Source of the DNA: Paragordius varius
Taxonomy: Eukaryota > Animalia > Nematomorpha
Length of the DNA: 64,000 bases
Assembly: GCA_964247055.1 (NCBI GenBank)
Contig: OZ176059.1
Span: 1,054,001-1,118,000, forward strand
Reading direction: 5' to 3'
The position numbers and the translations under genes are program-made. The notes below the pieces were generated by a model, which was not told the origin of the DNA, searched no databases, and saw only the letters and a program-made list of their open reading frames with translations. Of the stretch, positions 1-63,936 are shown piece after piece; position 1 is the stretch's first letter, and each line of letters opens with the position of its first letter.

Positions 1-80
1 CAGGGGGCACCTTTTATTAAAAGCCATTATAATAATTTTTTGCCCTAGAAAATTCATTTTCCTCTGCCTGTGTCCGCCTC

Positions 81-388
81 CATTGTGAATTTTTTCCGCA
101 TAACTTGTGTAAATTAGTTAGATTGGGGTAAATTTGGTATAAAACCTTCATGGAAATTAATCAATCCTCAAAAAGATCGCAATTCAGTTTTATTTGATGG
201 TGGGCATTTTTGAATGGCCTCTAATTTTTCATCGGTAGGTTAAATATCTTTCCCAGAGATTACATAACCCATGTATTACCTCGGGAATCGCCATTTGGAG
301 TTTATCCTTGCGTAATCGCAATCCGGCCTCTTGTAACCGGCTTAAAACAACCCTTAGTCTTTTATCATGTTCCTCGCAAGTGGCACAT
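81..388 (-). mobile_element. Ty3/Gypsy pol fragment (RT C-terminal part into connection region), decayed
   Basis: Minus strand translates, with frameshifts, to EEHDKRLRVVLSRLQEAGLRLRKDK...MGYVISG...PTDEKLEAIQKCPPSNKTELRSF...FIPNL...LHKL, the typical Gypsy RT sequence after YxDD. It directly abuts the left viral arm at 389. Confidence 0.85.
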
Positions 389-1578
389 AGAATTCCTATT
401 AACAAGGGCTAACTTTGCTTGCCGCTGTTCATTGTAAGGTATTAATGATGCTTTCTGTACAGCAAGAGACAACATATCCCTGACATGAGTCTCCATCTTT
501 GGCAATATTCTGGTCATGTAGTCTGTCACTGTCTTTTCATAAGGTCTGTTTAACTCATTTGTGAACCAATCACCTTTTGAGGCTAGCGATTCTCCCTTTG
601 CCAAGTCCTTTAAACATAAATTATAGATTCTGTTCAATAACTCTCTTTGCAGGAAGGCTTAGTACGAATTCTTCTTCTGTCAAAAGATAGGCAAAGTTTT
701 TATACAATTGATCCCCGGTTGTAGGGAACACGTCAACTAATTTCTCGCAAGTAACTCTGTTCATTGAAATGGTATTATCGTCCCATGTGTTGTTCTTTGA
801 TGAAGACCACTTTTTGAATAATTATCACCAAGCAAACACAGGGGAAAATTACTAATCTGCAGATCGTGTTCCTGAGATTAGATCATCCCAATGTATGGCT
901 TACCTTCAATTCGTCTACTTGCCTCATACAATTTTTTAAGTTCTTCCTTCCATACTTGTCCGGCCGACTTTAGAAAATCATCTCCCAAGCCTAATATGGA
1001 ACAATCAAATGTCACACTCTGAATATGGTAGTGCTATAAACCAACAATAACTGAGTCACCAGGGCTTTTTCCCAGTCACAATAATAATAAATCTTCCAGA
1101 GTTTGAGAGAAGAATAATCATGACCAGGTATGATATCTTCTTCTTTTATTGTTCTAGAGTAGGTTTCCTCTCTATCTCGAAGGAGGACCCATCCTACGAT
1201 TTCTGCCACTGTAGAATTACCAATCAATCCTCCTTCTCCTAATGCTTTCATGCCAATTTCGAATGCAGAGTCAGCTAGTAATTGTGCCCCACTTAAAGTA
1301 ACTGCACTAGAGCATCTCTTGGCTATCTGTTTATAAGCTGTTTCTTTGATAGTGTACGCTGGAGCTAGAGCACATATAGCTGTTACGACCAAGAAATCCC
1401 GAAGGGAGTCTTGATGTGAGCCTGTATACTTAGTCCTAGTTATAGAGCACCTATCACTTTCTATGGTTGTATAGTACTGATTTACCTGGGCCCATATATG
1501 AGGATATATTAAGAGAAGGACTGTAAGAACCTTCCACACAATACTTTCCTGAGACGTACGCACAGTCAATGACCGGAT
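389..1578 (-). pseudogene. Endogenous viral element, nucleoprotein (N)-like gene of a negative-strand RNA virus (left arm)
   Basis: About 390 codons can be rebuilt across stops and frameshifts. The central segment WKEELKKLYEASRRIEGKPYIGMI*SQEHDLQISNFP matches the E-x-x-L...PY(I/L)G-x-I...NFP pattern recalled from bornavirus/chuvirus-type N. Composition is purine-rich and less AT-biased than the host. Confidence 0.62.
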
Positions 1579-1625
1579 TTTAGTTATCTTTGTAACTTAC
1601 AAAATTAAAACTTATTCTACTCCCT

Positions 1626-1642
1626 CTGTTGCTTTTTTTATA
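1626..1642 (-). promoter_or_regulatory. Viral transcription stop/start gene junction TAT-AAAAAAA-GC-AACAG
   Basis: Minus strand reads ggTATAAAAAAAGCAACAGagg, between the stop of ORF 1691-2050 and the start of the N-like frame. It resembles the vesiculovirus junction TATG-A7-dinucleotide-AACAG. Confidence 0.7.
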
Positions 1643-1690
1643 CCTAATATAAATATATTAAGAGACACTCTAGATGAGCAGAACATTACA

Positions 1691-2050
1691 TCATTTGTAT
1701 TGGTACATATACCAAGAGAAGATTTCCACACGCTTAAATACTACTTTGTGCATCCAGTCATGAAGCATTCTGTGAAAAAATTGATCTTTTTTGATTATGG
1801 TACCTGGTGTATTCCAATATAGAGATGGACCTATCTCAATTGATAATAAACTTGTAAATCCTTCAGGGAAGTCCAAAAAGACATTTGATTGTTTACTGAT
1901 ATTGGTAGGAGACCCAAATGCGATCATATCTATATCAACCCAACAATTTGTGTTAGCAAGATGTCTTGATATATTACCCACTTGTTTGATGCAATTCTTC
2001 TCCAATGGCGGCACAGAATGAGCATCCACAAAAATTACTAACACATCCAC
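1691..2050 (-). pseudogene. Upstream viral ORF fragment of unassigned function (spacer of the inverted repeat)
   Basis: 119-aa open frame ending about 50 nt before the A7 stop signal; same composition as the N-like arms; no family recognised. Confidence 0.45.
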
Positions 2051-2102
2051 TGAGCATTACATTTTGACCAGTTATGAAAATGTTTTACTGGTTGTCTATT
2101 AC

Positions 2103-3277
2103 TCTCAGGGAAGTATTGTGTGTAAGGCTTTTACAGTCCTTCTCTTAATATATCCTCATATATGGGCCCAAGCGAATCAGTACTATACACCAATAGAAGG
2201 TGAAAGGAGCTCTATAACTAGGACTTACAGGCTCACATCAAGACTCCCTTCGGGATTTCTTGGTCGCAACAGCTATATGTGCTCTAGCTCCAGCGTACAC
2301 TATCAAAGAAACAGCTTATAAACAGATAGCCAAGAGATGCTCTAGTGCAGTTACTTTAAGTGGGGCACAATTACTAGCTGACTCTGCATTCGAAATTGGC
2401 ATGAAAGCATTAGGAGAAGGAGGATTGATTGGTAATTCTACAGTGGCAGAAATCGTAAGATGGGTCTTCCTTCGAGATAGAGAGGGAACCTACTCAGGAA
2501 AAATAAAAGAAGAAGATATCATACCTGGTCATGATTATTCTTCTCTCAAACTCTGAAAGATTTTTTACTATTGTGACTGGGCAAAAGCCCTGGTGACTCA
2601 GTTATTGTTGGTTTATAGCACTACCATATTCAGAGTGTGACATTTGATTGTTCCATATTAGGCTTGGGAGATGATTTTCTAAAGTCGGCCGGACAAGTAT
2701 GGAAGGAAGAACTTAAAAAATTGTATGAGGCAAGTAGACGAATTGAAGGTAAGCCATACATTGGGATGATCTAATCTCAGGAACACGATCTGCAGATTAG
2801 TAATTTTCCCCTGTGTTTGCTTGGTGATAATTATTCAAAAAGTGGTCTTCATCAAAGAACAACACATGGGACGCCTATAATACCAGTTCAATGAACAGAG
2901 TTACTTGCGAGAAATTAGTTAACGTGTTCCTTACAACCGGAGATCAATTGCATAAGAACTTTGCCTATCTTTTGACAGAAGAAGAATTTGTACTAAGCCT
3001 TCATGACAAGGACAACAAAGAAAAGTTATTGAACAGAATTTATAATTTATGTTTAAAAGACTTGGCAAAGGGAGCATCGCCAGCCTCAAAAGGTGAATGG
3101 TTCACAAATGAGTTAAACAGACGTTGTGAAAAGACAGTGACAGACTACATGACCAGAATATTGCCAAAGATGGAAACTCATGTCAGGGATATGTTGTCTC
3201 TTGCTGTACAGAAAGCATCATTAAAACCTGACAATAAACGGAGGCAAGCAAAGTTAGCCCTTGTTAATAGGAATTCT
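2103..3277 (+). pseudogene. Endogenous viral element, N-like gene (right arm)
   Basis: Inverted copy of 389-1554 (ORFs 2064-2321, 2260-2556, 2891-3313). It shares the same internal stops, has a private 5-nt deletion near 2226, and has extra bases near 3000-3015 that the left arm lacks. Confidence 0.62.
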
Positions 3278-4960
3278 GAAGATTTTCATGAATTTTTCTT
3301 GTATAGGTGTTAAAATGTAGAGGACATAAGCAATGTCTGGACCACATATTACCAAGAACAATTCGGAAAAATACATGATTTTAAAACAATAAACCAACCA
3401 CCAGCAAAAGGTCCCAGACCATTGATAACAGATGTAAGTGGCCTAGATGAAATATAACAAAGCAACTGTGGTCCATTTTAAATCAGCTCCGACATGATTA
3501 AAGCTTTACCCCCAATGCATTCATTTAACTAATATATTAAATCAAATCTTATCAACGAATCACATCCCTAATGATTGGTGAAAAAGCACCATCATTCCCA
3601 TTTAAACAAAACAAAGGGGACGACATACTCGTTTGTTCCTCCTACAAATCACTAAAATTGTTGGAGCACCCGTTAAAATTTTTTTGAATCCATTATTGAA
3701 TCAAAACCGAGATCAATCAGCAACATAGATGAATCGCAATATGCCTATAAACCAAACAGTAGCACAATTGATGCAATCTTTATTTAAAAATAAAAAACTA
3801 TATCATGTTATTATTGATTTACAAAGGGCCTTTGATTGTATCCCCAGGAAGTTAATCACATCCACACTACGACCCAACAACGTAGATGATTGGATAATCG
3901 AATCTATTGAAATGATGTACTACAAAACAACAAACTGCGTCAGATTAACACTAGGCAACACAGCTTTTGTTCCAAACGAATCTGGTCTTCATCAGGGCTC
4001 CATCCTAAGCCCTTTACTTTTCATTTTAATAATTGATTACCTAACAAAAGATATAAAACAAGGCCTACCATGGGAACTTATCTATGCGGACGACATTGTC
4101 CTCACCGCAACATCAATGGAAGAATTAAATCAAAAGTACAACACATGGAAATCACACTTAGAAAAGGGTGGAATGAAGATAAATATAAGCAAAACAAAGG
4201 TGCTGATAACGGGTGAAACTGTATATGATCGACCTAAGTTTCCATGTAGAGTATGTGATTTAGATGTAAAACAACTCAATTCAATCCTATGTACATCATG
4301 CAATAAGTGGGTACAGAAAAAATGCTCGCTTATAAAAGGGACATTAATCAACATAAATTTTATGTGAATCATGCAAAAATAAAACTATAAATCACTCATC
4401 CAATTCAATAAATTACCTTTATATGGCAGACGCCAAAATCGAATCGGTATATAATTTTAAATACTTGGGCGATGTCATACATTGCCTAGGTGGAATAAAC
4501 CAGTCAGTTCAATATAGATCCCAAAAGGCTTAGGTAAAATATCATCAACTTAATTTTGTGCTCAAAAATAAACACATATCAGCAAAAAACAAAGGTTTAA
4601 TCTACAAAGCCGGCATACGTCCCACACTCCTCTATGTAAGCGAGAGTTGGCCGATGACAGATTCATTTGAGAAAAAACTAATGAACACACTAAATTTATT
4701 CCACCCCAATAAGTCAAATTCAAATTTACATCAACTGTACCAAATCAAACCTTTAAATGTTATGCTCAGAAAAAATAGGTTTAGATATTTCGGACACATC
4801 AAACGGCTCCAGAACAATGGACAAATAAAATTATCCCTACATCCCGAAGGTAACAATCGCAGGGGTAGACCAACATTTGACTGGGAAAAAACAATAAATA
4901 ATGATTTAAATAGTGTTGCCAACATTGATGATGCACATATTACAGGCAGCTTCTATACAG
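3278..4960 (+). mobile_element. 5'-truncated, decayed non-LTR retrotransposon (RTE-like LINE, RT domain)
   Basis: IDLQRAFDCIPR, GLHQGSILSPLLF and LIYADDIVL motifs in ORF 3729-4367; Cys-rich finger after RT; C-terminal KGLIYKAGIRPTLLY...LRKNRFRYFGHIKR...RRGRPTFDW in ORF 4558-5091; multiple frameshifts. Confidence 0.92.
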
Positions 4961-5283
4961 ATACAATGGCTAGCCATTACACAAAAAACGACACATCATC
5001 AATAATTATTTGTGAACCATTTAATATGTTTTACGGCTATTTATTGAAGTTTTTGATTAAAAAGTTTTTAGAAATAAATATTGAAAATTAGCTGATCAAA
5101 AATAAAGGTTCCAAAATTCCGTTCCCATCTGCTTTTTTAAAAATATATTTTGAAACCGAAACATGGAACAAAAAATTACTTCAAAACAAAGATATTCCAT
5201 ATAGTTATGAAGGAATAAAATAAATTACGAATATTTTAATCAAGCTGATTGATATATATGCTTTTACTTAGGAAAAATCTAAT

Positions 5284-5646
5284 TCATACTTTTTTGAAAC
5301 CTGATGCCGTTTTGATTGAGAATTTGGTTGATACATCAGTGCATTTTGTGGTTGGTGTATAGAAAGTCAAAAATAATTTTTTATCTGATTCCTAAAATAT
5401 CAATTAGTTTTTACTTTACATAGGATTTGATTTAAATTATCGTTTGTGTTGTTTTCAATTAAAGGGTATCTAAAATAAACAAATGTGCACATACATTGTG
5501 GGTAATGATATTTGATAAATATGTGGTGGTTGGTTATCAACAAGGTATGATTCATCAATAATATGTGGTAATTGACCGTGTAAATTAAATAACATAAGAT
5601 TAGGCATTGCCTTTTTTTGCATTGTTCGGTTAAAATAGGCAAGCAT
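5284..5646 (-). CDS. Possible small micro-intron-containing gene or pseudogene fragment, product unknown
   Basis: Exons 5646-5495, 5469-5415 and 5391-5290 stay in frame (about 103 aa) across canonical 25-nt (gtatgt...ttttag) and 23-nt (gtaaaa...ttttag) introns. No homolog recognised; there is an in-frame stop just upstream. Confidence 0.27.
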
Positions 5647-6530
5647 GCGTTAACATGCGCCAAAATGTTGCAGCTGATTATTTTGATCCCGTAATCAGAA
5701 AAATGTATTTCCTTTGAAGCAATTTTTTAGGAAACCGCACACATTTATAAAATAAAAATTTGTTTCAAAAGTCTGTTTGTACAAAATAACCCTTTAGTAA
5801 TGTCTCACTACGCGTGAAAGTATGGATTTTAAAAAATTCTAAGTTTGAATCACGTTTCCGTAAAATGCATATTCCCTTTCTTCGGTCGCAACAGTTGTTA
5901 TTTTGAGTTCTTTTCGAAAGTGCCGAGGATTACATAGCCGTTTTTTAGAATGAGCTTCCAGATACCGTTTTTGGAAATAAGGTTTTTAAGCAATTATTGG
6001 ATTAAAGGCTGTTTTCTGGAAAATATAGGCCCAATAATTATCGGTAAACATTTTACATCATCTCAATGACGACAGAGCCAATTTTTGAACTCTTTTTTAC
6101 CTTATGGAAATGAGAATAAGCAAATATGGTTTCAGAAAACGCATAGGCTTATTCGATATAAATAATATATATTTTATCAGTTTTTCCACATAGATTTTTT
6201 TAAAAATTAGCACCTTGGTTGATATCCCAATAATTATTGCTTTTGAGGACACCTACCGGAAAAGGTGTAGGGGTAAACATTTAACATTCGGAGTTTTTTT
6301 TATCTTTTGGGAGTGAGCGAAGGACAGGTTATTCTTCTAAATTGAACGTTTCCTCACCAGTGAATACAAGTTTTGAACATATATGAAAGCTATTTCGAGG
6401 AAAACAAGCAGGCTCAAATTTATAATTAAATTTCGAGATTTTCACCAGATTTTGAAGAAAGCGAATGCGCTATTGTAACACACCATTACATTTTGGGACA
6501 GTTTTATTAGAGCCATTTGAAATTGAAAAT

Positions 6531-6800
6531 CTTAAAACTTAAAATAAAATTGGGGTATCTAAATAACCCAGACTATATTAAAGTTAATATTTTTAAAAAA
6601 CCACTGAAGGAAACGGTTCCATTTTAATTTATGATTCATAATAAAAATATAAATAAGTTAAAATATCTAAAAATTTCGTTTCATAAACATGTCATGTTCC
6701 CTAAATTTTTTCCATAAGTCACGTTAATATAAGTAATATCAGGTATGAATAAACTTTATTATATATTTCGGTTCATTAATGTTATATAAGTGCAAATTTT
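6531..6800 (+). repeat. Dispersed repeat; diverged inverted partner at 8801-9107
   Basis: cttaaaactt...aattggggtatctaaat and atataagtgcaaa are reverse complements of atttagataccccaatt...aagttttaag and tttgcacttatat at 8801-9107. Confidence 0.65.
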
Positions 6801-7862
6801 TGCCATGGTTTTATCGTTGCATATTTTTAAATTTTTTTATTTTAAACAAGCCTGGCGTAACCAACTTCCCCAATTTGAATCGAAAAAATTAAATGAGTGT
6901 GTTGTATCCAAGTTAAAAAATAGGTATTTAATAAATAAAAATATGCTTTTTTAGCCTTTTAGGCGCATCACAAAATTTTTTTCAAGAATGTAAAATCGTA
7001 AAAACTCAATAAAAATTTTTTTGCAGCCATATTTTTTCTATAATTTTTTATACGCTAATGCAATAGGCAAACAAATGTTTATTATGGATATGTAATATAA
7101 ACCATTATCAAACTTTCAGGCTACATTTTACCAACAAAATTTGTTGTATTTTTATTTTAATATCAGCCGTTCTTCCTAATCGTGAGGCCTTAATTTTAGA
7201 CTTTAGGAGTCATAAAACTATAAAGAGCTTTTTTATTTAATACATGAAAACATATAATTAAATTATAACTAAAATAACTTTCAACAGTGTTGTTTATTTA
7301 CAAAATTGAGCTCTGGGATATAGAACAACCCTGAAATATAATCAAGGAAAATGTTGAAAGGTAGTGAGGTGTTCAAATTTTCTCTTAACCCCGTGTTAAA
7401 ATAAGGACATCTAAACATAATTTGGCTTCTTTTCGAGATTTAAGGTGATTTCATGTTTATACACTCTATATCTTTTAAATTTAGCTTTTTCCTAACACTA
7501 ATTTAACAAATATAATTAGAATTTTTAAATACATTTTTAAAGATTCAAAACAAAACTTTAATCTAACAGTTTTGTTTTATTTAATTTTTATCTCTTATTA
7601 AATAAAAAATAGATCATACTAGCCAATGACTACCGAAAAATTATAATTTTTAATAATTGATTGATGTGTCAATATTTTTAGCTATCAGCATTATAACATT
7701 CTAGCGGAAATAACTTTTTAAATAATCTTGAACATAAATATTCTAAATTTTTTTCGATAGTTATATCAAATAAATTTGCCTTAATTAAGCCTGTCTCATC
7801 TTTATAACTCTCTGTTATAAATGTTTTTATAATACGTAGACGTGCGATAATTTAACGCATTC

Positions 7863-8371
7863 ATGTTGCCACATATTTTGACCACACTCTTGGTAACTTT
7901 GATTGATTTTGCTTATGGAGAATCAAATAACTGTTATGATAAAGGCTTTATAGCTGTTCAATGTGAGGATTGCGAAAAATTTGATAATAAAACGGCAATT
8001 TATGATGATTGTAAGGGATGTTGTTTGAAAACTTTATCTGAGGATAGTCAGGATTCAGTATAATTATAAATCTTATTAAATAGTCGTTTATATCAGCAAA
8101 ATTGGTTGTATGTGGATGAAAATTAAAAGCTTATCCTCAAATTCATGGTTTTAATAAATTATATATTTAAGCATTTGTAACGAGTGAAAAGATTGCAAAT
8201 TATCCGATGTTAGAAGTTGTGTATAGAGGAGGTGCCCTCCCAGCCCTTGAACTAACCCAATCTGACGGTTCTGTAAAAGTACAAGCTATAGATGCATGGA
8301 CCACTGATGCTTTGGAAGAATTTTTAAAGAAAACTTTTCCAAACAATATTTTAACGTCTGATGAATTGTAA
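7863..8371 (+). CDS. SELENOF: Selenoprotein F (Sep15), 152 aa, Sec encoded by TGA 8117-8119
   Basis: Exons 7863-8057, 8084-8147, 8172-8371. Signal peptide, Cys-rich domain (C...CEDC...CKGCC), redox motif VCGUKLKAYPQIHAFV, thioredoxin-like C-terminus (IDAWTTDALEEFL), ends SDEL. Confidence 0.96.
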
Positions 8372-10431: not shown

Positions 10432-11196
10432 TGCCACCAGATGTTAACTTGATGAGGAGATAATTATAAGAAACGTATGAATATTCGGTTTTTTTATGGT
10501 TTATATATACTAATTTTAGTTGTACATAATTTGCATTATAACAATAAAATTTCAAGTAACAAAGGATATAATATTTACATAGTACCAAAAAATATAAAAA
10601 TAATACAATTCAAATAACGCTGAAAGTTATGATATACAACCAAGTGTATTTCAAATTTGTATGTAACACAGAAAATTATGATATAAAAACAAAGTATATA
10701 TTTCAGATTTGCATGTAACATCACTTCCCCCTTAAGAGAACCGGACCGGCTTCCGCCGAATTCTCTCGGGGTAACGACGCTCGTGCGGATTTACATTGAA
10801 ATTTTCATTATTGCTATTAATATTATCATTACTACTTTCATTATTATTTTCATTTATTTTATCATTTTATTGTCATTACTACTATTATTATTATCTATAC
10901 TGTTACCATTATTATTACTGTTATTGTCTTTATCACTATCATTACTATTGTTTTGAGTGACCGGTGTGGTTGAGTTGGCGGGTTGGTCTACTTGTTTCAA
11001 TTGCTCCGCATGCTTTCTGACGATCTTCTAGTTTACCTGATCCCACACACTGTACCAAAGGAGACCTGTTCTATCAACAACATCGCCGGCTCGCCATCCA
11101 GGACTTTGTTCGTTTTTCATCATTATGCGTTGGTTTATTGAGAATTCACGGCGTGGACGGGGTGCGTCTAAGCTTTCAAACTATGATTCGTCGACA
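10432..11196 (-). mobile_element. Gypsy LTR retrotransposon remnant: integrase C-terminus, PPT, LTR (10442-10720), PBS
   Basis: Minus strand REFSINQRIMMKN...GWRAGDVVDRTG...Y...RKHAEQL...RRYPERIRRKPVRFS*, then the polypurine tract aagggggaag, LTR TGTTAC...GTTAACA, then TGGTGGCA (10439-10432), complementary to a tRNA 3' end such as Leu. Confidence 0.9.
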
Positions 11197-11723
11197 CCGC
11201 CAACTCAACGACACCGGTCACTCCTAACAATAGTAATGATAGTGATCACGCCAATAACAGTAATATTAATGGTAACAGTATAGATAATAATAACAATAGT
11301 AATGACAATATAAATGATAATAATAATGAAAGTAGTAATGATAATATTAATAGCAATAATGACAATATCAATGCAAATCCGCACGAGCGTCGTTACCCCG
11401 AGAGAATTAGGCGGAAGCCGGTCCGGTTCTCCTAAGGGGGAAGTGATGTTACATGCAAATCTTAAATATATACTTTGTTTTTATATCATAATTTTCTGTG
11501 CTACATACAAATTTGAAATACACTTGGTTGTATATCATAACTTTCAGCGTTATTTGAATTGTATTATTTTCTATATTTTTTGGGTACTATGTAAATATTA
11601 TATCCTTTGTTACTTGAAATTTTATTGTTATAAGTACAACTAAAATTAGCATATATAAACCATAAAAAACCGAATAAATATTCATTTCACGTTTCTTATA
11701 ATTATCTCCTCATCAAGTTAACA
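11197..11723 (+). mobile_element. Inverted duplicate of the Gypsy 3' end: pol tail, PPT, LTR (11447-11723)
   Basis: Reverse complement of 10442-10981: Asn-rich linker, RRYPERIRRKPVRFS* (stop 11433-11435), PPT, 277-bp TG...CA LTR. Confidence 0.92.
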
Positions 11724-18900: not shown

Positions 18901-19480
18901 ATTTTGAAACAAAATTATTTTTTGTTTTATTTGTTGCGCTAATCAAATTTTTTTTTATAAGTTCGAGTATTGTTAAATTTACATGATTCCAGTTAATATA
19001 ATATATTTATTAATCAAATGTGTATAATTATATCCGTAAAAACTGTATTTTTATGTAAATAAAGATTTAGTTATGTATTATATCAGAAATTTTTTAATAT
19101 ACCCACCCACGTTTATGATTTTTTTGACATTTAACTATATTAATAACCTAAATTTTTTGTTTCAAATCAGAATATTTATCAATATGCCTGGTGTGGTGTA
19201 CAATATGCTCAAATATCCAGACCCTGAAACCTGGTTTTTCAATCATTACAAATGGATAATATTGAAATTGGCCTCAATGGAATTAAGATTTCCCACCTTA
19301 CTTGCTGGCCATTTACTTACACCACATAATGTTTTATCTCAACTTAAATATAGGTAACTCTCATATCTTTTTAATTTTAGCCTTATTCTCATTTTAGTTA
19401 TTTTATTTACAAAATTGTTTTATTAACCAGGGGTTCGCGGACCGCTTTTTAAATAAAAAAACCTGCGGGCTACTCTATGT

Positions 19481-19521
<41 letters not shown>

Positions 19522-19967
19522 ATCACCATTTACAATTCAAATTCACCCTTAAACAATTCAAATCCACCCTTGAACAAAAATCACCCTTGAACAATTCTAA
19601 TTCACTCTTAAACAAATCAAATCCACCCTTGAACAATTTGGATTCACCCTTAAACAATTAAAATTCACCCTTAAACAATTAAAATTCACCCTTGAACAAT
19701 TCAAATTCACCCTTAAGCAATTCAAATTCACGCTCAAATAATTTATATGTTTTTTAAGTTTAAAAATTACCTATATTTTTATACATTTTTAAAAAATAAA
19801 ATTTTGTTTTAAATTAAAATAATACTGAAAAATAAACATGCCATAAAGATATATTTCATATTAATAATGAGTTATATTAGTTCGAAAAACACATAATTTA
19901 CAGAGTGAATTCAAATTGTTAAAGGGTGAATTTAAATCGTTAAAGGGTGAATTTGAAGTGTAAATGG

Positions 19968-20022
<55 letters not shown>

Positions 20023-22475
20023 TGATGGCAACAAAAGAATATTTTAACACACTTTACTGAACAATCATTGGTGTTTTATAATTTCTGAGAAAACGACATG
20101 GATACCTAAAAAATATTTTGTAAATGATATTAATTTTATTATTTTTAGTTTTCCAAGATTTTGTAAAATGAACACTTTAATAATTTATAAATTGATATTA
20201 TTTGTTTTTTTTGAAAATTTTCGCGGGCATACAGAATTTTGCATAGGATTGTATGTTGGATACCCTGTTTTTGACTTTAAAATATTGCTTTTCAATTATG
20301 ACTTTTTCGTTTAGATTGCTATAATTTTAGGATGATGCTTATCATATAATTTTGTTTAAAAAAATTTCATTATCTTTTATTTTGTTGTTTCTGTTATTAC
20401 TTATAAATTTCACCTTTTACAAAACATAATGTAATGTTATCATAATAATAGTTGTAATAATTTAGATATACCATTAACAGTTCAAATTTACCCTTCAACA
20501 ATTTAAATTCACCCTCGAACAATTAAAATTCACCCTTGAACAATTCAGATTCACCCTAAAAATAAATTATATGTTTTCGAACTAATATATCCCATTATTA
20601 ATATAAATATATCTTTATGGAATAGTTTAATATTTTTTAAGTATTATTTTAATTTAAAACAAAAAAAATATGTAAAAATATAGGTAATTTTTAATCTTAA
20701 AAAACATAAAATCTATTTAATGGTGAATTTGAATTGTAAATGGTATATTATTATTTTTGTAAATATTATAGTTTTAGGAGTTATTTAAAAAAGATATTTT
20801 GCCATTAGATATGATAGGGAAATAGATTTATGTCACCGATCTTGCCTTAAACGTATTATGGAACACGATGATATACCCGAAAAAACTATGGTACTTTTTG
20901 TTTCAGACATCTACATAGATAATAATGAAACTACTACTAATGATAACCTTTGTGAAACCAATTATTCAAAAGTATGATTGTTTTACAATGTGATTATTTT
21001 TGTATAACATTTACAATTCAAATTCACCCATGAACAATTCAAGTTCACCGTCGAACAATTTAAATTCACCCTAAAATTTAACTATGAAATTTCGGTCTAA
21101 TATAACTCATCATTAAAAATTAATGTATTTTTGTGACAAATTTTATTATTTTTTCAGTATTATTTTGATTACATACAAATTTTCTTCTTTAAAAAAATAT
21201 AGGTACTTTTTAATCTCAAAAAACACTTAATTTATTTTAGTGATACTACTAATGATAAATTTTGTGAAACCATATATTTAAAAGTATGATTGTTTTACCA
21301 TGATTATTTATACATACCATTTACAATTCAAATTCACCCTTGAACAATTCAAAATCACCCTCGAACAATTCAAAATCACCCTTGAACTATTTAAACTCAC
21401 CCTAAAAATTAACTATGAAATTTCGGTTTAATATAAAACTCATCATTAAAATTTAATGTATTTTTATGGCAAAGTTTATTATTTTTTCAGTATTTTTTTG
21501 ATTACATAAAAAAATTATTTATATAGGTTATTTTTATATAAAAAAACACATAATTTATTTTAGGGTGAATTTGAATTGTTTAAGGGTGAATTTGAATTGT
21601 TTTAGGGTAAATTTGAACTGTAAATGTTATAATATTGTGAATAATTTATTTTGGATATTTTTATAAACCTCTACCTTTATACTTTTAAATATTGATATAT
21701 TAATTAAATCATGTTTTTTTATTAAAAAAACTAATTTTTATAAACTACTTCCTAATTAAAATAATTGAGGGATTTGATTTGCATTTTTACTTTTAAATAA
21801 AATAAAATAAATTAAATTTTGGGCTTTAAAAGCAAATATTTATATAAAAAAATGATATTTATTATATTTTTTAAATTTTGAAATATATATATATGTTATA
21901 TGGAGATATATACCATTTACAATTCAAATTCACCTCTGAACAATTTAAATTCACCCTAAAAACAAATTATCTGTTTTCGGGCTAATTATAACTCATCATT
22001 AATATAAATATATTCTTATGGCATAGTATATTATTTTTTCAGTATTATATTAATTTTATACAAAACTTCATTTTTAAAAATATAAAAAAATATAGGTTAT
22101 TTCTTATCTCAAAAAACACATAATTTATTTTAAGGTAAATTTGAATTGTTCAAAGGTAAATTGAATCGTTCGAGGGTGAATTTGAATCAAGGGTAAATTT
22201 TAACTGTAAATGGTATACCATTGTGAATAATTTATTTTGGATATTTTTATAAACCGTTACTTTTATAACTTTCAAATACATGATAAATTAATTAAATTTT
22301 TTTATTTTTATTAAAAAAACTAATTTTTACAAACTAGTTCCTTATTATAATAATTGAGATATTCGATTTGCATTTTTACTTTTAAATAAAATAAAATAAA
22401 TTTTGGGCTCAAAAGCAAATATTAATATAATAATAATTTTTATTACGTTTCATTTATAATTTTTATTATTCTTTT

Positions 22476-22511
<36 letters not shown>

Positions 22512-25500
22512 TTTACAATTGAAATTCACCCCTGAACAATTCAAATTCACCCTAAAAATAAATTATCTGTTTTCGGGCTAATATAACTCATCATTAATAT
22601 AAAATATATTCCTATAGCATAGTTTATTATTTTTTCAATATTATATAATTTTATACAAAACTTCATTTTTAAAAATATAAAAAAATATAGGTAATATTTA
22701 ATTTTAAAAAACACATAATTTATTTCAGGGTGAATTTGAATCGTTCAATAGGGAATTTGAATTGTTCAAGGGTGAATTTGAACTATAAATGGTATATATA
22801 TATATATATATATTATATATATGTTATATAGAGATGTATTAATTTAAGCATATATTTAACGGAATAAAAAAATAGAATAAGCATGAGACCAATAACAATC
22901 AAATTTTAGCCATGGAACTGAGCGATGGATGGTATGCTATTCAATGTGTAGTTGATCAGCCACTATTACAATTAATCAAAGGCAAAAAAATTGGTTTAGG
23001 CGATAAATTATGTATATCTTATGCCCGGCTTATAGGTTCATGCGAACCTGAAACTCCACTTTTGGTTAGTTATTACCTATTACTTATTACTTTTATTAGA
23101 TATGACAAAATATGAAATTATTAATTTTTTGATAATGATTCATTCCGAAAACTTATATGTGCTCTTTTTTGGATATCTATTTGGTTTAAGTTTGCTTTTT
23201 TATAATTCTAGCCAATTAATATATACCATTTGTATTTCAAGAGTGTCTTTTCAAGTTTGAATATTTTAAGTTGGTCCTAGTTTTTTTGTTTTGTATTTAA
23301 CTTTTATCAACCGATTTTCTATTATTTTATATTTTAAATCAATATGTACTTTTAATTATTCAAACCATACATAATTATTTTTGTGAAATTATTTTGGATA
23401 TTTATGAGATTTTAACTTTTAATTAAATATATATAAGTTTTCATTTCTAAATTATTATTTACAATTTTTCTTTGAAAACATTTAAAAGTTAATAATTTTG
23501 TAAAATTGGAGAAAAATTAGTTTGAAACAAAAAAACTGTTTTGAATAAAAGTTTTTATTTTTAAATGAATAAATATATAATAAAGAAAAATTAGGTTAAT
23601 AAATAATAGAATAAAAAAATACATGCAAAAATTATGGTATCAAAATTTCAAAATTTATGGATTAACTTGAAGTTTTCAAAGACCAATTTGAAGTGTTTAA
23701 GGACCAACTTGAAGTGTTCAAGGACCAACTTGAAGTGTTCAAGGACACTTTTGAAGTGCAAATGGTATATTATTTATTTTTTTATTTCCAGTTTCCCACT
23801 TTTTTAACAACAGATTGACTATAACGTAAAAAATATCTTTGTCAAAATTGGCTTTAGTTTTTATCTTTTTGGGTCAAATGGTTATGATATTGGTTTATTT
23901 TAATAACTCACAGAAAGCTTAATTATTTTGATATCATGTGAAAAATTAAAAAAATATATATAAGCTGCAAATATTGCTTTATGATGTAATTTTATAGTTC
24001 AATTCAACTAGTAAAAACTCCCAGGATATAAATTATTTTTTTATCAAAAAAACCATTTTAAAACCACAGTTGTCAAATCGGTTAACAAAAAGAAGGCTAA
24101 TAGTTTCGACTATGCAATATTATAAACTTGTCAGTTATATTATAGATTTAATAATTTTATTCTTCATTCGATTTGGGACTTGGGATACTTTTTTAGCATT
24201 TATTTTTTTAGATGTTACGATATCTCCCATCTTTATAAGATAAGAGTTTAATTTTTAATTCCAATTTGATACCATGGAACATTTTCATTCCAAAGTAACC
24301 TATTTTATTTGATTTCACAAAAATACAGTATGTGTAAGTATACATTGCTAGAAAGTTATTAATTATTGCCAAATAGTAAATACAACAAAGGGCAGTATTA
24401 TTGGCTTACGGTTATTTTATTCTCTTTTACAATTATTAGCCAATAATAATTCTCTTTGTTGCATATGCTATTTGGCAATAATTAATAACTTTCTAGCAAT
24501 GTATACCTACATATACTGTAATTTTTAATAACCTAAGATATTTTGGATCATAATATTCCCTTTTCATTTATATTATAAATTATTTTATAGAGTTGAAAAA
24601 GTATAATCTTTTCATTTTTTTCCATTGATATAATGTAAAGTTATCGATCAATATATCACTGTGTGCAAAAAAAGGTGGTTAATGTTTTTAACAAAAAAAA
24701 TTTTTTTTTTCCATAAGATAGCTTATTACCCGCGGATTCATTTGCCGCAAAAAATTTTATTTGTTGACGACCTAGTTTTTGAAACAGTGAGAGAAAATTA
24801 AAATTTAACAGAAAAGTGAAAATTAGTGATATATAATTAGAATATAATCATTAAACTTGAGATATTATGGTTTATTTTCATTTTAGGAGATATTTTCAAT
24901 ATTTAAATAGCCTTAAACTTAGGGTCGTTTTTAATAACTTTGATCGAAAAATCCCGTTTATCTTTAACCATATCAAAAAACAAAGGTTTTTTTATAAAAA
25001 TATATTGAAATATTTTTTTAATTATTTGCTAGCTAAACTCACTATTAAAATCTCAACATTCGTATTTTATTCAGTAAAAAAAATTGTATATCAAAATAAA
25101 ACTAAAAAAATATTGTTTTAATTTTTCATTTAGTTTATGAGTGTATAAAAAATATACTGCCTTATATTGGAATTTCACATGAGTGTTAATTATAAAGTAT
25201 ATAAATTAATACAAAATAAATTTACAAGTAGTGGGATATTAACCAAAAATCCTTACAATCCCCGTAAAAAGTTTGTTTTAACACAAGTTAATATTTTTAC
25301 TGGGATATATATGGATTTTTGGTTAATTTTCCACTATTTGCAAATTATAATTTGAATTTATATACTTTATAATTCCCGCTCATGTGAAATTCCAAAATAA
25401 AACAGTAATTTTTTTATGCAGTCCTAAATCAGATGACAAAAAAGGGAAAAAATAAAAAACAACATTTTTTAGTATTTTCATATAGAAGTATTTTTTACTG

Positions 25501-28500
25501 AATATGGATGTTAAGATTTTAATAGTGAGTTTAACTAGTAGTAATCAAAAAAAATATTTTAATATAGGTTATAAAAAAAAATTTTTGTTTTTTGAGTACG
25601 TTAATAGAAAAACGCCTTCCTTTGATTTAAGATTTTATAAAAACCCAAACTATATGATTTTAGGCTATTTATATATTGAAATATCTCCTAAAATTATAAT
25701 AAACCATAATATGTCAAATTTTATCATTATTTTTTGAATTATCCTTAATTATTTTCACTTTTTGCCCAATTTTAATTTTCTCTCAATATTTCAAAAACTA
25801 GGTGGTTAACACATAAAAATTTTTGCGGAAAATGAATTCGCGCTGGTCATAAACTATCTCATGAATTGTTCAAAAAAAATTTTTTTGTAACATTTTTTTG
25901 TTAAAATTTTTTTGCTAAAAATTTTTTAGGCCTATAAAACTAGCAAATTAGCTATTTCATATAATTCAACACGCCGTGCCAAATGGTGGACAAAACTAGG
26001 TTACCTTGCTTCCCATATTAATGTTAATAAGGGTGGAAACTCATCATCAACTATGACTTTACCACTTAAATCACTGAGACCAAACGGGGGTCCGACACCC
26101 CAATTATGTCTCATTATACTTAGGACATATCCACTCTTGGTTAATTTTTTGCTTAAAGTCATTTTTTTGTTGCAAAAGGTTTTTGTCGTTAGAATTCTCA
26201 AATTTTCCGTTTTTTTGATATAAGTTTATAATTTTGAATAATATGATGGAATATCAGCAAAATTAATAATAAATTTATTAATGAATTTTCGTTAAATTCC
26301 TCTAATTTCTTCGGATCAACACAAAATAAAATTAAAATAAAGATACAAATAAAAATTATGAAATATATTATAAAAACAAAGATGTATATCTATTTATAAA
26401 AAATTCCGTTATTGGGTGGATATGATTGATTTCTTTTTGTCCGTTTATATCTCCCGAATTTACAGTGGCGTATGGAGTAATACCATATTAGTTCATAAAA
26501 GAAAAAAAATGTTTTTTTTAAAAAAAACAATCCTAGTTGTAAATACACATATCTATAATATCCCCTTGTTTTTTCAAGAAAAACAATTTTTTATTCCATT
26601 ATGGACTAATATTGTTTTATTCCATACGCTTCTGTATATAATAGCTTTCTTTTATAATTTTTTGGTTTCGTTCTCTTTTTTATCTATTATCTCAACGTTA
26701 TCCCAATTATTTTGTGTCTGTACGCAAGTGCCGACACATTTACTTTGTTTCTTCTTTCTGCGGATTTGTGTTCTTTTATTCGAGTGTTTATACCTCTTTT
26801 AGTCTGTCTAATATAAATATCATCGCAATCATTACATTTGACTTTGTAAACTACAAATTTTACATCTTGTTAGATATGTAGATGATATAAAATTTGCATA
26901 GATGAGGAAAATAATACAAAAAAGTTACAAAAACAGTTTGATTGTACTAGCCTTTTACACTTCACTATAGAAAAAGAAAATAATAATAAAATCCCATTCC
27001 TCGATATATTGTTAACGAGAGACAATTATAATATTAAAACTCAAGTATATTATGAATCTGATACATACATAATTGATTATACCTCACACCAACCTCCAAA
27101 TTGTTTTAATTCTATAGTACACAGGTTACTACAACGTACATTATTAATTCCTAATGATATAAAAATGAAAACTGCACAAACATCGTTACTTGTTAAAAAG
27201 TTTTTAAAGAAAAATTATCCCCAGCACCTTATTACAAACGCTATAATTAAAATTATGAAACATAACGGAGTTAATAAAAATACGAAAAATAATGAGATTA
27301 ATAATAATAATAGTTACAGTAATACCGACAACAGAAAGGGAAAAAATACTAGTGATACCTTTTCACGAAAACGTCAGTTACAAAATCAAGGATATTTTAA
27401 AATCCAAGTTTCATATTATTTTTAAACCTCTTAATAACAACATTCGATAGGTACAAGAGAAAAATTTGTAGTTTACAAAGTCAAATGTAATGATTGCGAT
27501 GATGTTTATATTGGACAGACTAAAAAAGGTATAAACACTCGAATAAAAAAACACAAAGCCGCAGAAAGAAGAAACAAAGTAAATGTGTTGGCACTTGCGC
27601 ACAGACACAAAATTGATTGGGATAACGTTGAGATATTAGATAAAAAAGAGAACGAAACCAAAAAATGATTAAAAAAAGCTACTATATAAATAAGGAAGAT
27701 AATTAAATTAAATTAAAATAAATATACAAATTAAAATTATGAAATATTTTATAAAAACAAAAATATATATCTATTTATAAATTCCGTTATTGGGTTGTTT
27801 CTTTTTGTCCGTTTATTAATATTCCATATTTACAGTGGCGTATGGATTAAAACAATATTAGTCCATAATAGAATAAAAAATTGTTTTTCTTGAAAAAACA
27901 AGGGGATGTTATTACAACTAGGATTGTTTTTTTAAAAAAAACATTTTTTTTCTTTTATGGACTAATATTTTTTACTCCATACGCCACTGTAAATAAGGAA
28001 GATAAATTAATAAACCGACAAAAAGAGATCAATCAATCAACCCAATAACGGAATTTATAAACAGATATACATCTTTGTTTTTATAAAATATTTCATAAGT
28101 TTAATTTGTATCTTTATTTTAATTTTATTTTTGTGTTGATCCGAAGAAGTTAGAGGAATCTAACGAAAATTTATTAATAAATTTATTATTAATTTTGCTG
28201 ATATTACATCATATTATTCTAAAACATAATTCAGCCTATTGTTATGGTAAACAACGGATTGGTTATGTTTTGTAATAACAGTTGTTAAAATCCGTAATAT
28301 AACGATAAAGGATAATTAAGTAGAATTAAATGTCCATAATTTATCATGTTAAAATATTTAATTGCATTTTTGATATTGCTTTAAAGTATTAAAGTCATTC
28401 ATAATTTACTGGATTATAACTGCAAAAATTTACTTTTTTTCTTTTTTAACTATATGAACGAACCTCTTTCTGTAACATTTTTTTCTGAGTACTTTTTTTA

Positions 28501-29763: not shown

Positions 29764-32700
29764 TTACTAGATTTCAGCTATGAAAATGTTAAACATGGTC
29801 AAGATGCCCACAAAAAAGAATTATTAACTGACGAGGAGAATAATAATAGCAGTGAAGACGAAGGACAAAATAAGGAAAATGATAAAATAACCATAACTAA
29901 AATTACACGAATTTTACGGGTATTTTTTTAATAAACAAAATTTATGATTAAAATGTTAATATATATCCAAAATAATGAAATAATGCTATTTTTTGCAATG
30001 GAGAAAATTAATTTTAGAAATATATAATATTATGGTTTTTTATTTTCCTATCCATTTTTATGGTAACCAACCATGTATGTGAGATTTTGGATGTATATTA
30101 ATTTATATTAAAAATACCTCTATTTGTTATGAAACAAAAACTCTGTTAGAATAAAAAACTTTATTGATGTTCATTAATATAAATTTTTCACAATGGAACA
30201 TATCGTTGCTTATTCCCCGTATATCGCTTTTTTAATCCGTACTTTTTTTCATAACTATTTATTTAGCTTAGAGTTACTGATAAATCTTGGCTTTTCCATA
30301 CATGTAATTCGTCGAACCCTACTAAAAACTCACATACCAATAATCAAAGTTATAACGATAAAAATAATATTTCAAATGCAAATTCAAATTCAAATCTAAA
30401 ATATATGGTAACTAAATCATGTATTTTAACCATATACGATCCAACAGATGATATGATATCCCATTTTGAGAGTCGAAAAGCTACACAAAAATACTGTATA
30501 GTATCATGCCTTAATGTCACTTCAAACGTATATAATAATAATAATAGCATGCTCAACTGTAATAATACATGTAATGACATGACCACTATTAAAAGAAACC
30601 ATGAATATTATTATGAAAATGCCTCATTATCATTGAACACAAATATATCGACCACAAAGTATATATTATATAAATTATGGAATTACTGAATTAAATACAT
30701 TATAATAGGTAAAAAAAGGAATGTAAATAAAAATATGGAAACAAAAAATTGTGTCTGCGAAACGAACCATTTTTATAAATAAAAACTTTTGATGACCAAT
30801 GTGAATAGTAGATAATTAATTTATGCGCGTTTATTGTGTTAAATTGTTTTTCAGATATATATATATATATATATATATAAATAACCTTATCTCTATAACA
30901 CATAATTATATCAATATTTGCAACTTAATTTAACCCTACCTTTTTAGATTCGATCTTATTCCCTCAAATTTTATAAATTTATTCTACAACTTCTAGTTAA
31001 TCAATATATAATAAGAAGATTAACTTGATTTAAAACAGTTTAAATGCATTCTGCCTTTAATTTATTAGATATTAAAAACATTGTCGCCAAAAATATTTTA
31101 GAGAAAACGATAAAGGGGGTATTCCTGATTTGGAATTTTCATTCCACGAAGTATTTCATATTCACAATATTTATACTTTGTGGTAATCTGAGGTTATTTT
31201 TTACATAACACATGCCCTTGTGTACAACTAATGATTTTACAGTTATTAGAAACTGGCCTTTGCTGTCGGCCAGGTGGGAATATGACTTTGTTGGCCCTAG
31301 AGAAAGATATACCATTTATAATTGAAATTCACCCTAAAAATAAGTTAGTTTTTTCGAGCTAACATAACTCATTAATACGAAAGTAATGTATCATTATGGC
31401 TTAGTTTATATTTTTTTAGTATTATTTTAATTACAAACGAAAAGTTTTCATTCTTTTAAAATATAAAAAATAGAGGTAATTTTTTATCTTAATAAACATA
31501 TAATTTATTTTAGGGTGAATTTGTATTGTTTGAGGGTAAATTTGAAGTAAAAATGGTATAAATTAAATTATTTATGAGAAATATTTCAGTTCTGTGATAT
31601 TTTTCCAATTGGATTTTATATAAACAATTTTTTTTAATTATTTGCAGATCAATGGCTGGAAATAACAATATTCACCTAAAAACAAATCCCCGTAGCATTA
31701 TAAATTTGTATGAAACAAAAAATTATTTGGGCGATAATATATTTCCACAATTAATGCCTGATATCCAGGTAAATAAACAGCTTGTAAAAAATTGGTTATT
31801 GTTACTTTTTGTTTTAATATAATATAACATTCAAAACACTTACAGTAAAAATTGAATTATACGGACAAAATGTAAAAAATAAAGATAATCTATATATTTA
31901 TAAAAATGGAAAATGCTGGCTTTGTGATCTGGTACAGAAAAAACGGTAGACCCATTCAAATCCAAACTTCGAAAAAATATAATCATTAATGAATGCCCCG
32001 ACAATAGTTTCGCCCTTTTTTTGAAATAGGCCCCCAGTTCGGGCCCACCCCGTGTGAAAAATGGTTTTTTTTTTGAAAACAGAAGTCCACAAAAATCGTG
32101 TCTTTGAGACAATTTTCCGGAGAACGTGTTGGACCATTCAATTTCAATTATGATTTTTATTTACTTATTTTCGATTGCGCCGAACATAGTCGTCTCGCTT
32201 TTTTAATTTAGGCCCTCTTTTTACCCGCTACCCCCGTAAAATGCCATTTCAAAAAACCAAGTCCACAAAAATAATTTTTTAAATCTATTTTTCGCCCTAG
32301 GTATGAAACCGTAAAAATTCTATATGGATTCCACGTATTCCCTGTTAAAAGGCAAAATTTTGGGTAAGGAGATACCCGCTAAAAACTGATTCCTCATGTA
32401 ACTTTGTGATCTGCTACCGGTAGATCCATTCAAATCCAAACTTCGAACCCCCCCTCCCCAGAAGTCCGAAGGACTTCCTCTGGCTGCGTAGCAGCATTAC
32501 GCTAGTTTTTTTATAAAAGACAACCATACCCTTTTAAACCTTATCTTATCCTATAAAAAAATTTAATTAGAATCGTAAAATATATAATTGATTGTGTTAC
32601 CAATTTACATTTTCACATTATACTTTGTAGTTTTAAACAATGAGTAATATTAAAAAAAATCGGGATTAAAAAAGTTTGATCTTATAAAAAAATATTTGTC

Positions 32701-45900: not shown

Positions 45901-46726
45901 CACATATTTAAGATATAATTTGTAAAATGAAAGGATGTATACCTTTTATATTTTTGGAATTATAGGCAAATGACTAAATTAATTACTCTCTCATTGTCAT
46001 TAGAATGCAAATAGACTTTTGTGGTTCAATGAAGTTAAATTATTATTTTATATTGCTAAATCAATGATTAATGTAGAGTAAAAATTGAAATTATACGGGA
46101 CAAGACGTATATGAAGACAATTTTTTCAAACAACACTACTTTTTTGAACCTTAATTTATCCAAATTTTATATCTATCATAATATAAATAAAGATTGTGTT
46201 ACCAATTTACATCTTTATTTTACATGTGCAATTAAAACAATGAGTTATATTCAAAAAAATAAGATTAAAGTATGGCCGTCTTTTAGAAAAAAATATTTGA
46301 CTTTATATTTTTCCATTTTGTCCGTATAATTTCAATATTTGATGTAAAACTTACCTTCAAAAAAATGGAACAATTTTATTTCCTAATTTTCTATTATATT
46401 GTTATTGATTTTTAATCTATTTTAATAACTTATACTGAATCTATCAGCTTTATAATTAATTAATTTATTTACTTAACCCTTATTAATTTTAACAATTAAT
46501 TATTTTCAAGACTATATCATCAAGTATAATAAAAAATGGTGCTAATAATAACTAGTATGTGTGATAAAATTAACACAAAAAGTTTTTTTTATTTAACAGA
46601 AAGAGAAAGGAGGTGTAAGACGCCGCAAACGACCATATCCATATCATGCAAATAGGGCATAAAAATATTACATTTATACTATTTTAGTTGACTATAAATT
46701 ATTATCATTAAAGTGCAGAAAAAAAG

Positions 46727-46767
<41 letters not shown>

Positions 46768-46895
46768 TTTAAATAATAAAATATGTATTTGACAAATTAG
46801 TCTTTGAACCAAAATTCATAATAAGATGTGAAATTTTATTAACAAAATAATAAATGGGCGCCACATAACCCAAGACAAAATAACACCAACATGTA

Positions 46896-46937
<42 letters not shown>

Positions 46938-62759: not shown

Positions 62760-63936
62760 TTAAAACGGCCATATGGTAGCTAACAATTTTTGACGAAAAG
62801 CTGTATCAAAGTAGAAGTAAATGAAAAAATTATACAGTAGAGCCATGGTGTAAAAGAATACAAGAGATTTATCCACTATTTTATTATTGAGAAATGAGAT
62901 TCGGTCATATTTCAATGTCTGTTTAATGTATATATATATATATAATATATATCGCATATCAAATTTTGTTGAAAAAATTTTAAAACAGGAGTGTTCAACA
63001 CAAATGGCTTCTCAGGCCGCATTTTTGACTCAGAAAGACGAAGGGACGCATTCGAAATAAATATTAAATATATTATTAGATATCAGATATAAGACTGTAA
63101 AATGTATACACAATTCAATAATTTTGTCCAGTTAGTTGCCAAATGGATAGAATTATTATCGATTTGCAAAGATTTTGTGAGCATATTCCTGCAAACTATG
63201 TTTATTCAAAATTTTCGCGGGCTGCGTGCCGGACACCCCTGGATAAGAATTATTATGGTTTTTTATAAAATTGGTGGTCTGCTTGCACATAAGGAAAATA
63301 ATTGTAAGTAATAAGTATAAATTAGTTTCGATATAAAGCCCCCACAAAGCTTGACTATAAAACAATTGTTTTGGAAGCAAAATTCTAAATCGTTGGCCTT
63401 TTAAATGATGCATTTAAAACGTAGGACCCATATTCCAATCCTATTATTTTATAAAGATTAATATTTTTGTTCTTTGATACTACACACTTATTTTTATGAT
63501 CAGATTCTTGTAATACATTTATGATTTACTTAAAAATAAGTATTCATTCTTGTACATTTCGTAAATTAAAAAAATTATTTTTAGAAATAATAACATCAAT
63601 TATGAATACGATAAAGTATGGGACCCAAGTGAACAAATACGATATCGTTGATATCAATAACGAATATATGACATTCTTTATCTTTTGATGACTGACTTGT
63701 CTTTTATGCATAACATATATACCAGATTTGATTACAGCGGTTTCATTAGGCCCAGCAGAATTTCCTGTAGGCGGGAAACTCATCACACTACTTATTTTAT
63801 GTGAATCAACATTAGTTTTTGTAATCATATTATTAATATTTTTATTATCAACGAAATTATTGGTGTTATCGTAAAAACCTTGAGCCGAAAGGACAACATC
63901 ACCTCTTGTAACAGAAGATAGAGTGGCCAGCATTTT
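62760..63936 (-). CDS. Class A (rhodopsin-like) GPCR, 3' part (ICL3, TM6, TM7, helix 8); 5' end lies beyond the window
   Basis: Exon 63936-63556 (YSLLISTISYLFTWVPYFIVFII) joins in phase 0 to exon 62918-62760 (LLYNFFIYFYFDTAFRQKLL...*). Confidence 0.8.

Follow-up and report, generated by a model that had tools for sequence, protein, structure and literature searches.

How did two facing copies of what is likely a viral gene come to stand in an animal chromosome, and does the hairpin that they could form serve the animal? These questions are raised by positions 389 to 3277 of a 64,000-nucleotide (nt) stretch of Paragordius varius (Nematomorpha; GenBank assembly GCA_964247055.1, contig OZ176059.1, forward-strand positions 1,054,001 to 1,118,000), hereafter the window, in which all positions are counted from its first letter. 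Two arms, each carrying a broken copy of a gene resembling the nucleoprotein (N) gene of a negative-strand RNA virus, lie there in opposite orientation around a spacer. The account that we consider on balance probable is that of a real inverted duplication of a viral N-like gene, which was captured by a retroelement, folded back at the time of capture and has been decaying since then without a selected role. The locus is composed of the following parts.

389..1554, minus strand: left arm, 1166 nt, a broken copy of the N-like and likely viral gene
1555..2102, no strand: spacer (loop), 548 nt, single copy
1626..1642, minus strand: gene-end/gene-start signal (TAT-A7, a 2-nt gap, AACAG) of the type of non-segmented negative-strand viruses
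1691..2056, minus strand: frame of 121 codons within the spacer, likely belonging as its 3' part to the viral gene ahead of N
2103..3277, plus strand: right arm, 1175 nt, the second broken copy of the N-like gene

The inverted repeat in the chromosome

Inverted repeats are a known type of assembly error, and one arm might have been folded back while the contig was being assembled, an explanation that we regard as so improbable as to be nearly negligible. The arms agree in 1116 of 1180 alignment columns (94.6%) and are separated by 49 difference events (45 substitutions, comprising 28 transitions and 17 transversions, and 19 gap columns), with private substitutions and indels present in each arm; self-BLAST finds no other long inverted repeat in the window that is as long or as identical. 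Parts of the stretch occur in 6 of the 11 public sequencing runs listed, of which five (X1, X3, X4, X5 and X6) were used; no RNA run containing it is listed among the 11, which says nothing about expression. In X1, a contig piece covering 333-539 bridges the left outer junction at 389 with 1 difference, and the pieces covering 1497-1925 and 1896-2160 bridge the inner junctions (1554/1555 and 2102/2103) with 0 differences, these three crossings having 56-58 nt on the shorter side. The depth of X1 is 928 in the collapsed core of the arms (735-1384, represented by one 650-nt contig) as compared to 444-468 in the spacer and 370 in the unique flank. Some room for an error is left by the fact that X1 is possibly the very sample from which the window was assembled and that, among its pieces listed, none crosses 3277 or spans the whole locus. 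The arm-private differences, the bridged junctions and the double depth of the core nevertheless make an assembly fold-back very unlikely, and another sample (X4/X5) shows a different fold-back joint. The inverted repeat is real, and the near-identical opposite arms around a 548-nt spacer described in an earlier note, which had been made from the letters of this DNA, are borne out by their coordinates, their identity and the X1 junctions and depth.

The same note had ascribed a non-host composition to the locus. This holds when the arms, having 39% GC (guanine plus cytosine), are compared with the remainder of the window (26% at 5001-64000), but the flanking retroelement pieces also have 35-38% and the spacer has 34%. 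The observed/expected ratio of CpG is 0.39-0.41 in the arms and spacer against 0.99 in the remainder of the window. The integration is in host chromosomal DNA, as an X1 contig joins the insert to retroelement DNA at about single-copy depth, and the window contains animal genes, BRCA2 domains being matched at E 1e-17 and 2.6e-15, besides an F5/8 type C domain and, weakly, a G-protein-coupled receptor (GPCR).

The N-like gene and the frame ahead of it

About 390 codons of the gene are present in each arm, in pieces. In the left arm (minus strand) the first piece is open from 1596 to 1015, the frame switches near 1021-1036, 803-821 and 641-660, and in-frame stops stand at 878-880 and 659-661; ATG is absent from the gene-start signal to 1495. 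The right arm begins approximately at the 5' end of the N-like frame. Several breaks are common to both arms (in right-arm positions, near 2616-2631, 2772-2774 and 2831-2849), and the right arm has further breaks of its own, among them a stop at 2554-2556 and a gap near 2226. Over the two frames, that of the arm gene and that of the spacer, there are no introns. The PY...FP motif by which the gene had been recognised as viral N is present in both arms, though an in-frame stop interrupts it; we take this stretch to resemble the cores of N proteins.

When 1.84 billion proteins were scanned by HMMER with the first left-arm piece, 2 matched at E <=0.001, one of them being an uncharacterised crayfish protein, XP_053644330.1 (P0005, E 1e-4). 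The first arm piece aligns to residues 227-398 of P0005 with a score of 146 that was equalled by 0 of 2000 shuffles, and the second piece, which carries PY...FP, aligns next in order at 404-477 (equalled by 2 of 2000 shuffles with BLOSUM62, and by 0 of 2000 with BLOSUM45 when only residues 399-520 were used). For residues 227-617 of P0005 the top viral match was A0A1L5BWN7 of the artovirus PpNSRV-1, with 25% identity over 378 columns (E 7.3e-4), whereas the other 49 viral rows listed had 10-16% identity. The length of A0A1L5BWN7, 620 aa, is that given for open reading frame (ORF) I of PpNSRV-1, which is presumed there to be N by its position (PMC5344506), and ORF I of LsNSRV-1 is described by its authors as being without features of known nucleoproteins and as resembling uncharacterised Daphnia and beetle proteins (PMC6394706). 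Judged by these sequence matches, the arm gene is likely the N-like gene of an unknown artovirus-related negative-strand RNA virus, its identity as a nucleoprotein being reached in two steps.

Several points weigh against this assignment. The viral link is weak, leading from the arm to P0005 and only then to PpNSRV-1 ORF I; the third arm piece falls in order at P0005 479-570 without being significant (P 0.27-0.53); an unrelated bacterial Ig-like protein scored nearly as high as P0005 in the same HMMER scan; and no family profile recognises the arm protein. The structural model of P0005 227-617 was poor (predicted local distance difference test, pLDDT, 35.8), with a template modelling (TM) score of 0.15, and a second poor model (pLDDT 34.5), in which the N-like part was represented by its first 137 residues only, gave a noise match at E 1.2e-3 with 10% identity and 50 viral rows that do not include PpNSRV-1. 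As the first model reaches a pLDDT of only 36 and a TM of 0.15, the artovirus match rests on sequence, and as the noise E-value of 1.2e-3 lies near 7.3e-4, it is the identity and not the E-value that carries it. The bacterial protein, P0006 (Ig-like repeats, E 1.9e-4), was rejected as a composition match, one Ala/Thr/Ser-rich stretch being matched three times and the other arm pieces remaining unmatched.

Apart from these, sequence searches of Rfam, Pfam, NCBIfam and PDB gave nothing relevant, and the arm protein matched no known N in Pfam, NCBIfam or PDB. Word-based protein searches yielded 0 of 1123 candidates for P0001 against longer proteins, 0 of 50 for P0004 and, for P0005 222-620, only itself among 7994. 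No relative was found in scans of viral contigs with P0002, alignment A1 and P0003 or of metagenome contigs with P0001, and the ESM Atlas gave no usable match, its best score of 0.82 being a lead only. The comparison with viral N folds by Foldseek that the earlier note had proposed was carried out against the PDB with poor models (pLDDT 35-36) and gave no match. The viral N origin claimed there is supported indirectly, by the route through P0005 to the artoviruses and by the viral-type gene junction, and not by a direct match to a viral N. If the arm gene were instead a decayed gene of the host or of a transposon, this would account for the arm protein matching neither a family profile nor a solved structure, and for its sole real homologue being an uncharacterised crayfish gene model; given the artovirus top match of P0005 at 25% identity, the viral-type junction ahead of the arm, the two frames without introns and the low CpG, we hold such a non-viral origin to be quite improbable. 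P0005 itself clusters with gene models (P0007 and P0009) in which it is fused to an RNA-binding protein of the RBM46-like kind, and XP_053644330.1 is probably an unrecognised artovirus-like insert in or beside an RBM46-like gene, or a real fusion.

The spacer, with its frame and gene junction, also looks viral, a point absent from the earlier note. The gene-end/gene-start signal (1642-1626) stands 49 nt past the stop of the spacer frame and 72 nt ahead of the arm, and shares the A7 run and the AACAG start with the signals given for vesicular stomatitis virus (VSV), the other letters being different (PMC6636387). The pattern, which was picked after inspection of the sequence, has 1 match in the window and was matched in 1 of 100 shuffles. 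The termination motif of PpNSRV-1 was also tried and fits at 1644 with 3 mismatches; it was not counted, 48 such places being present in the window. The spacer frame had no match in Pfam, PDB or viral contigs and no membrane-spanning stretch by eye. Its likeness to the region of P0005 just ahead of the N-like part is weak (P 0.03-0.17 in 5 tests), and the second viral structure search, made with a poor model, did not identify the upstream gene.

As the insert crosses a gene junction, its template was likely not a single-gene mRNA, and genome-length or read-through viral RNA is the likely source. The virus likely had a gene ahead of N, unlike the known artoviruses, where ORF I comes first in the gene order (PMC7011699): the artovirus order is U1(N)-U2-U3-G-L, and here a frame and a junction lie upstream of the U1-like gene. 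For chuviruses the orders L-G-N and N-G-L are described (PMC6932829), and for mymonaviruses N in second place (PMC6394706); no chuvirus is among the named top rows of the viral search with P0005. The likeness to ORF I/U1 of the Artoviridae (PpNSRV-1, PMC5344506; LsNSRV-1, PMC6394706; ICTV, PMC7011699) consists in its being the best viral match of the crayfish homologue and in gene-end/gene-start signals that are A-rich and of the AACA type. The differences are that artovirus ORF I is the first gene and has 620-661 aa, whereas here a gene and a junction come ahead and about 390 codons are present. Since no L polymerase sequence is recognisable in the insert, the family is not assignable from it. 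Of the probably undescribed virus announced in the earlier note there remains a likely undescribed negative-strand lineage without a family name and, even as a fossil, the locus records such a lineage, in which an artovirus-like N was preceded by another gene and a VSV-like junction.

Probable capture, fold-back and decay

On its outer sides the insert adjoins the pieces of two different retroelements.

1..388, minus strand: fragment of the pol gene of a long terminal repeat (LTR) retrotransposon, multi-copy, with the end of the reverse transcriptase and the start of the next domain (RVT_1 E 0.013, weak)
3278..3322, plus strand: linker of uncertain origin, 45 nt, which X4 contigs track to 3283
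3323..5000 (right end approximate), plus strand: 5'-truncated, high-copy element of the long interspersed nuclear element (LINE) type, with reverse transcriptase at 3729-4367 (RVT_1 E 2e-20)

The pol fragment, which we take from its motifs to be of the Ty3/gypsy type, abuts the 3' end of the left-arm gene and has a depth of 4,600-8,200 in X1 against 370 for unique DNA. The LINE likeness begins at 3323, and its depth in X1 is 10^4-10^5. The two elements (n=2) lie on opposite strands, both read away from the hairpin and both are without 5' ends. The repeat itself includes no flank sequence and consists of viral DNA only, with a different retroelement on each side, and its viral outer ends coincide to within about 6 nt, the right side being followed by X4 contigs to 3283. 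That the repeat spans viral DNA only, between two different retroelement fragments, points to a fold-back during capture, a single locus leaving room for either order of fold-back and integration.

The capture may have proceeded as follows. Viral RNA of genome length, or a read-through product, would have been reverse transcribed by a retroelement enzyme, as is suggested by the direct join to the LTR pol fragment and by known viral DNA chimeras. The new strand would have passed from the N end across the junction and on into the upstream gene before priming itself at the N start and copying N again, so that two arms end together and the junction with the upstream fragment becomes the loop. Afterwards the arms acquired substitutions and indels, tracts of them were probably homogenised by gene conversion, and the centre was apparently lost in another individual. 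The chimeras of virus and LTR retrotransposon described in insects (vDNA, PMC5857290) likewise have viral sequence joined directly to LTR-element coding sequence and are a predicted source of double-stranded RNA (dsRNA); those are somatic, made during infection and a source of small interfering RNA (siRNA), whereas the present insert is a fixed and aged chromosomal copy with a built-in inverted repeat, known from DNA.

The divergence of the arms was compared by codons in three stretches of the left-arm frames, from which codons with gaps or left-arm stops were dropped. Among the 41 differing codons 10 are synonymous, 30 are non-synonymous and 1 is a stop, as compared to a neutral expectation of 0.27 synonymous, calculated with a transition weighting of our own choice (p 0.86). 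Most differences between two viral isolates should be synonymous, so that those seen here are likely neutral and the arms likely diverged as inert DNA. There is no excess of CpG transitions between the arms (4 of 40 vs 24 of 432 columns, p 0.28). By stretch, the 49 difference events number 25 in 389-778, 0 in 779-1069, 10 in 1070-1194, 1 in 1195-1426 and 13 in 1427-1554, leaving identical runs of 293 and 190 columns, and a run as long as 293 occurred in 0 of 20,000 random placements. This suggests gene conversion between the arms as the simplest cause of the long identical tracts and, on account of such conversion, the breaks shared in the core are no proof that the gene died before it was duplicated.

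A single integrated copy might instead have been duplicated later in inverted form, a resected DNA end priming itself as the adjacent LINE inserted. A 5'-truncated LINE does adjoin the right arm, several breaks are common to both arms, and L1 insertions with inverted duplication of neighbouring DNA have been described (bioRxiv 10.1101/2024.12.14.628481). Those fold-back duplications also lie beside the 5' end of a truncated LINE, but in the described cases the genomic flank is duplicated around a small hairpin loop, whereas here the repeat is viral only and the loop has 548 nt. The copy ends at the boundary of virus and LTR element with no flank taken, the X4 contigs continue the right arm 6 nt beyond the join of left arm and LTR element (a weak point, from 2 contigs), and the shared breaks are all confined to the near-identical core, a region in which they can be spread by conversion. 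We regard a later duplication as possible and rather unlikely.

Copy-back defective genomes are another known source of such a shape, having a stem of the terminal gene and a loop that reaches into the upstream gene, and the repeat has the shape expected of them. The hairpin would then have been made by the virus, with N as its last gene, and reverse-transcribed whole. Defective genomes are reported to template viral DNA in insects, as chimeras with LTR elements (PMC5857290), and the order L-G-N occurs in chuviruses (PMC6932829); at the arm ends, however, no trailer sequence is evident, and the word 'inverted' is absent from the main text of PMC5857290. A copy-back origin appears improbable to us, and we retain the fold-back during capture.

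X4 and X5 represent one sample, which is a second individual under the same species label. Several arm segments occur in it in two to three diverged versions, all 6 of the 6 bins across 1540-2139 are without cover, and 1452 is joined to 2552 (40 nt on the shorter side). The missing cover, by itself no proof, reads together with the joint as a hairpin whose centre has been deleted; against this stands that no X4/X5 contig shown ties the joint to the flanks of the locus. X3 and X6 bear the labels of other organisms; their low-depth pieces fit arm and spacer with 0-4 differences, bridge no junction and were not used for dating. Contigs of X3-X6 that are about 84% alike to 3071-3134 (10 other letters in 64) continue on both sides into unlike sequence, and probably stem from another and more distantly related insert of this viral gene family elsewhere in the genome.

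Double-stranded RNA and the question of defence

Any transcript through the locus would, as predicted from its sequence, fold into 1.2 kb of dsRNA covering both polarities, and in this the earlier note is followed; the inner 1261 nt fold with a predicted energy of -761.5 kcal/mol. From this it had been proposed that the locus is an inherited hairpin-RNA defence, in which the transcribed arms would pair and guides against the cognate virus would be produced by Dicer or the Piwi-interacting RNA (piRNA) pathway. Hairpin transgenes have this geometry, and a fold-back joint persists in the second individual. Besides, inserts derived from viruses are reported to yield piRNAs in mosquitoes (PMC13643977) and in a mollusc (PMC6085071), and dsRNA of ORF I is reported to reduce the load of PpNSRV-1 in wasps (PMC5344506). 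For decay without a selected role it is also inconvenient that 619 of 1160 21-nt windows are still perfectly paired, that the neutral codon changes are compatible with selection at the RNA level, and that gene conversion itself could preserve the duplex.

The comparisons made at the level of codons, wobble pairs and structure showed no sign of selection on the hairpin. Transitions compatible with G.U pairing number 13 on the plus and 15 on the minus strand (p 0.85, at low power), neither strand being favoured, and the identical tracts agree with selection for pairing as well as with gene conversion. No inward promoter is visible in the flanks, where both elements point outward and are without 5' ends, long inverted repeats are common nearby, and the loop is missing in the second individual. 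Canonical viral siRNAs are also reported as not found in several non-arthropod animals (PMC6085071). In view of the neutral divergence and of these points we consider the inherited defence unlikely, and any small RNA that the locus might give would at least as likely be piRNA as siRNA. A fuller version, in which the fold-back at capture made a heritable hairpin gene that is transcribed into siRNAs against both strands of the artovirus-related virus and kept paired by conversion, is slightly less likely again; if true, animals would possess in the heritable hairpin a natural equivalent of the hairpin transgenes engineered for virus resistance.

Endogenous viral elements (EVEs) are thought to protect mainly through one-strand piRNAs. 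If capture itself produced a long inverted repeat, dsRNA of both polarities would be gained in a single step and a piRNA cluster would not be required; the locus offers a clean test of this, because arms and spacer predict opposite small-RNA outcomes and individuals differ in the centre. The hairpin RNA (hpRNA) genes of Drosophila and the inverted-repeat siRNA loci of plants are transcribed and target host genes or transposons; the present locus shares with them a long imperfect stem that Dicer could cut and is known from its sequence.

Inserts derived from nucleoprotein genes are themselves common (e.g. PMC13643977) and already known, and what is new here is the hairpin shape of the viral fossil. 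Like the dog whelk insert, which is rhabdo-like, holds N only and has piRNAs with 5'U (PMC6085071), and the non-retroviral EVEs (nrEVEs) of Aedes (PMC13643977), it is a broken, intronless N-like gene among retroelement fragments with related copies elsewhere in the genome. It differs from them in its 1.17-kb inverted repeat of viral DNA only, in also containing a gene junction and a portion of the gene upstream, and in that small RNAs are reported from the dog whelk whereas here there is sequence alone. In the titles and abstract openings of open-licence papers on inverted-repeat or artovirus inserts, no animal is described that naturally carries an RNA-virus gene as a fold-back insert.

The window also holds many shorter inverted repeats and a second long one at 10442-11723, with arms of about 540 nt (91% identical over 549 columns), a 215-nt spacer and low-complexity tracts. 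At 26226-28229, nested inverted repeats surround the decayed remains of an element that has a GIY-YIG domain (E 2.5e-5) and is presumably Penelope-like; it sits between BRCA2-exon-like stretches. A family resembling miniature inverted-repeat transposable elements, with 21-nt subterminal tandem units, is found in both orientations at 19500-22800, 31300-31550, 42450-45200 and 47840-48060. Among the host genes, BRCA2 extends over about 16100-39400 on the plus strand, with Pfam matches at 19040-19354 and 22876-23112, a probable discoidin-domain receptor gene with Asn-rich stretches lies at 40000-47900 on the minus strand, and a GPCR-like exon at 63547-63936, also on the minus strand.

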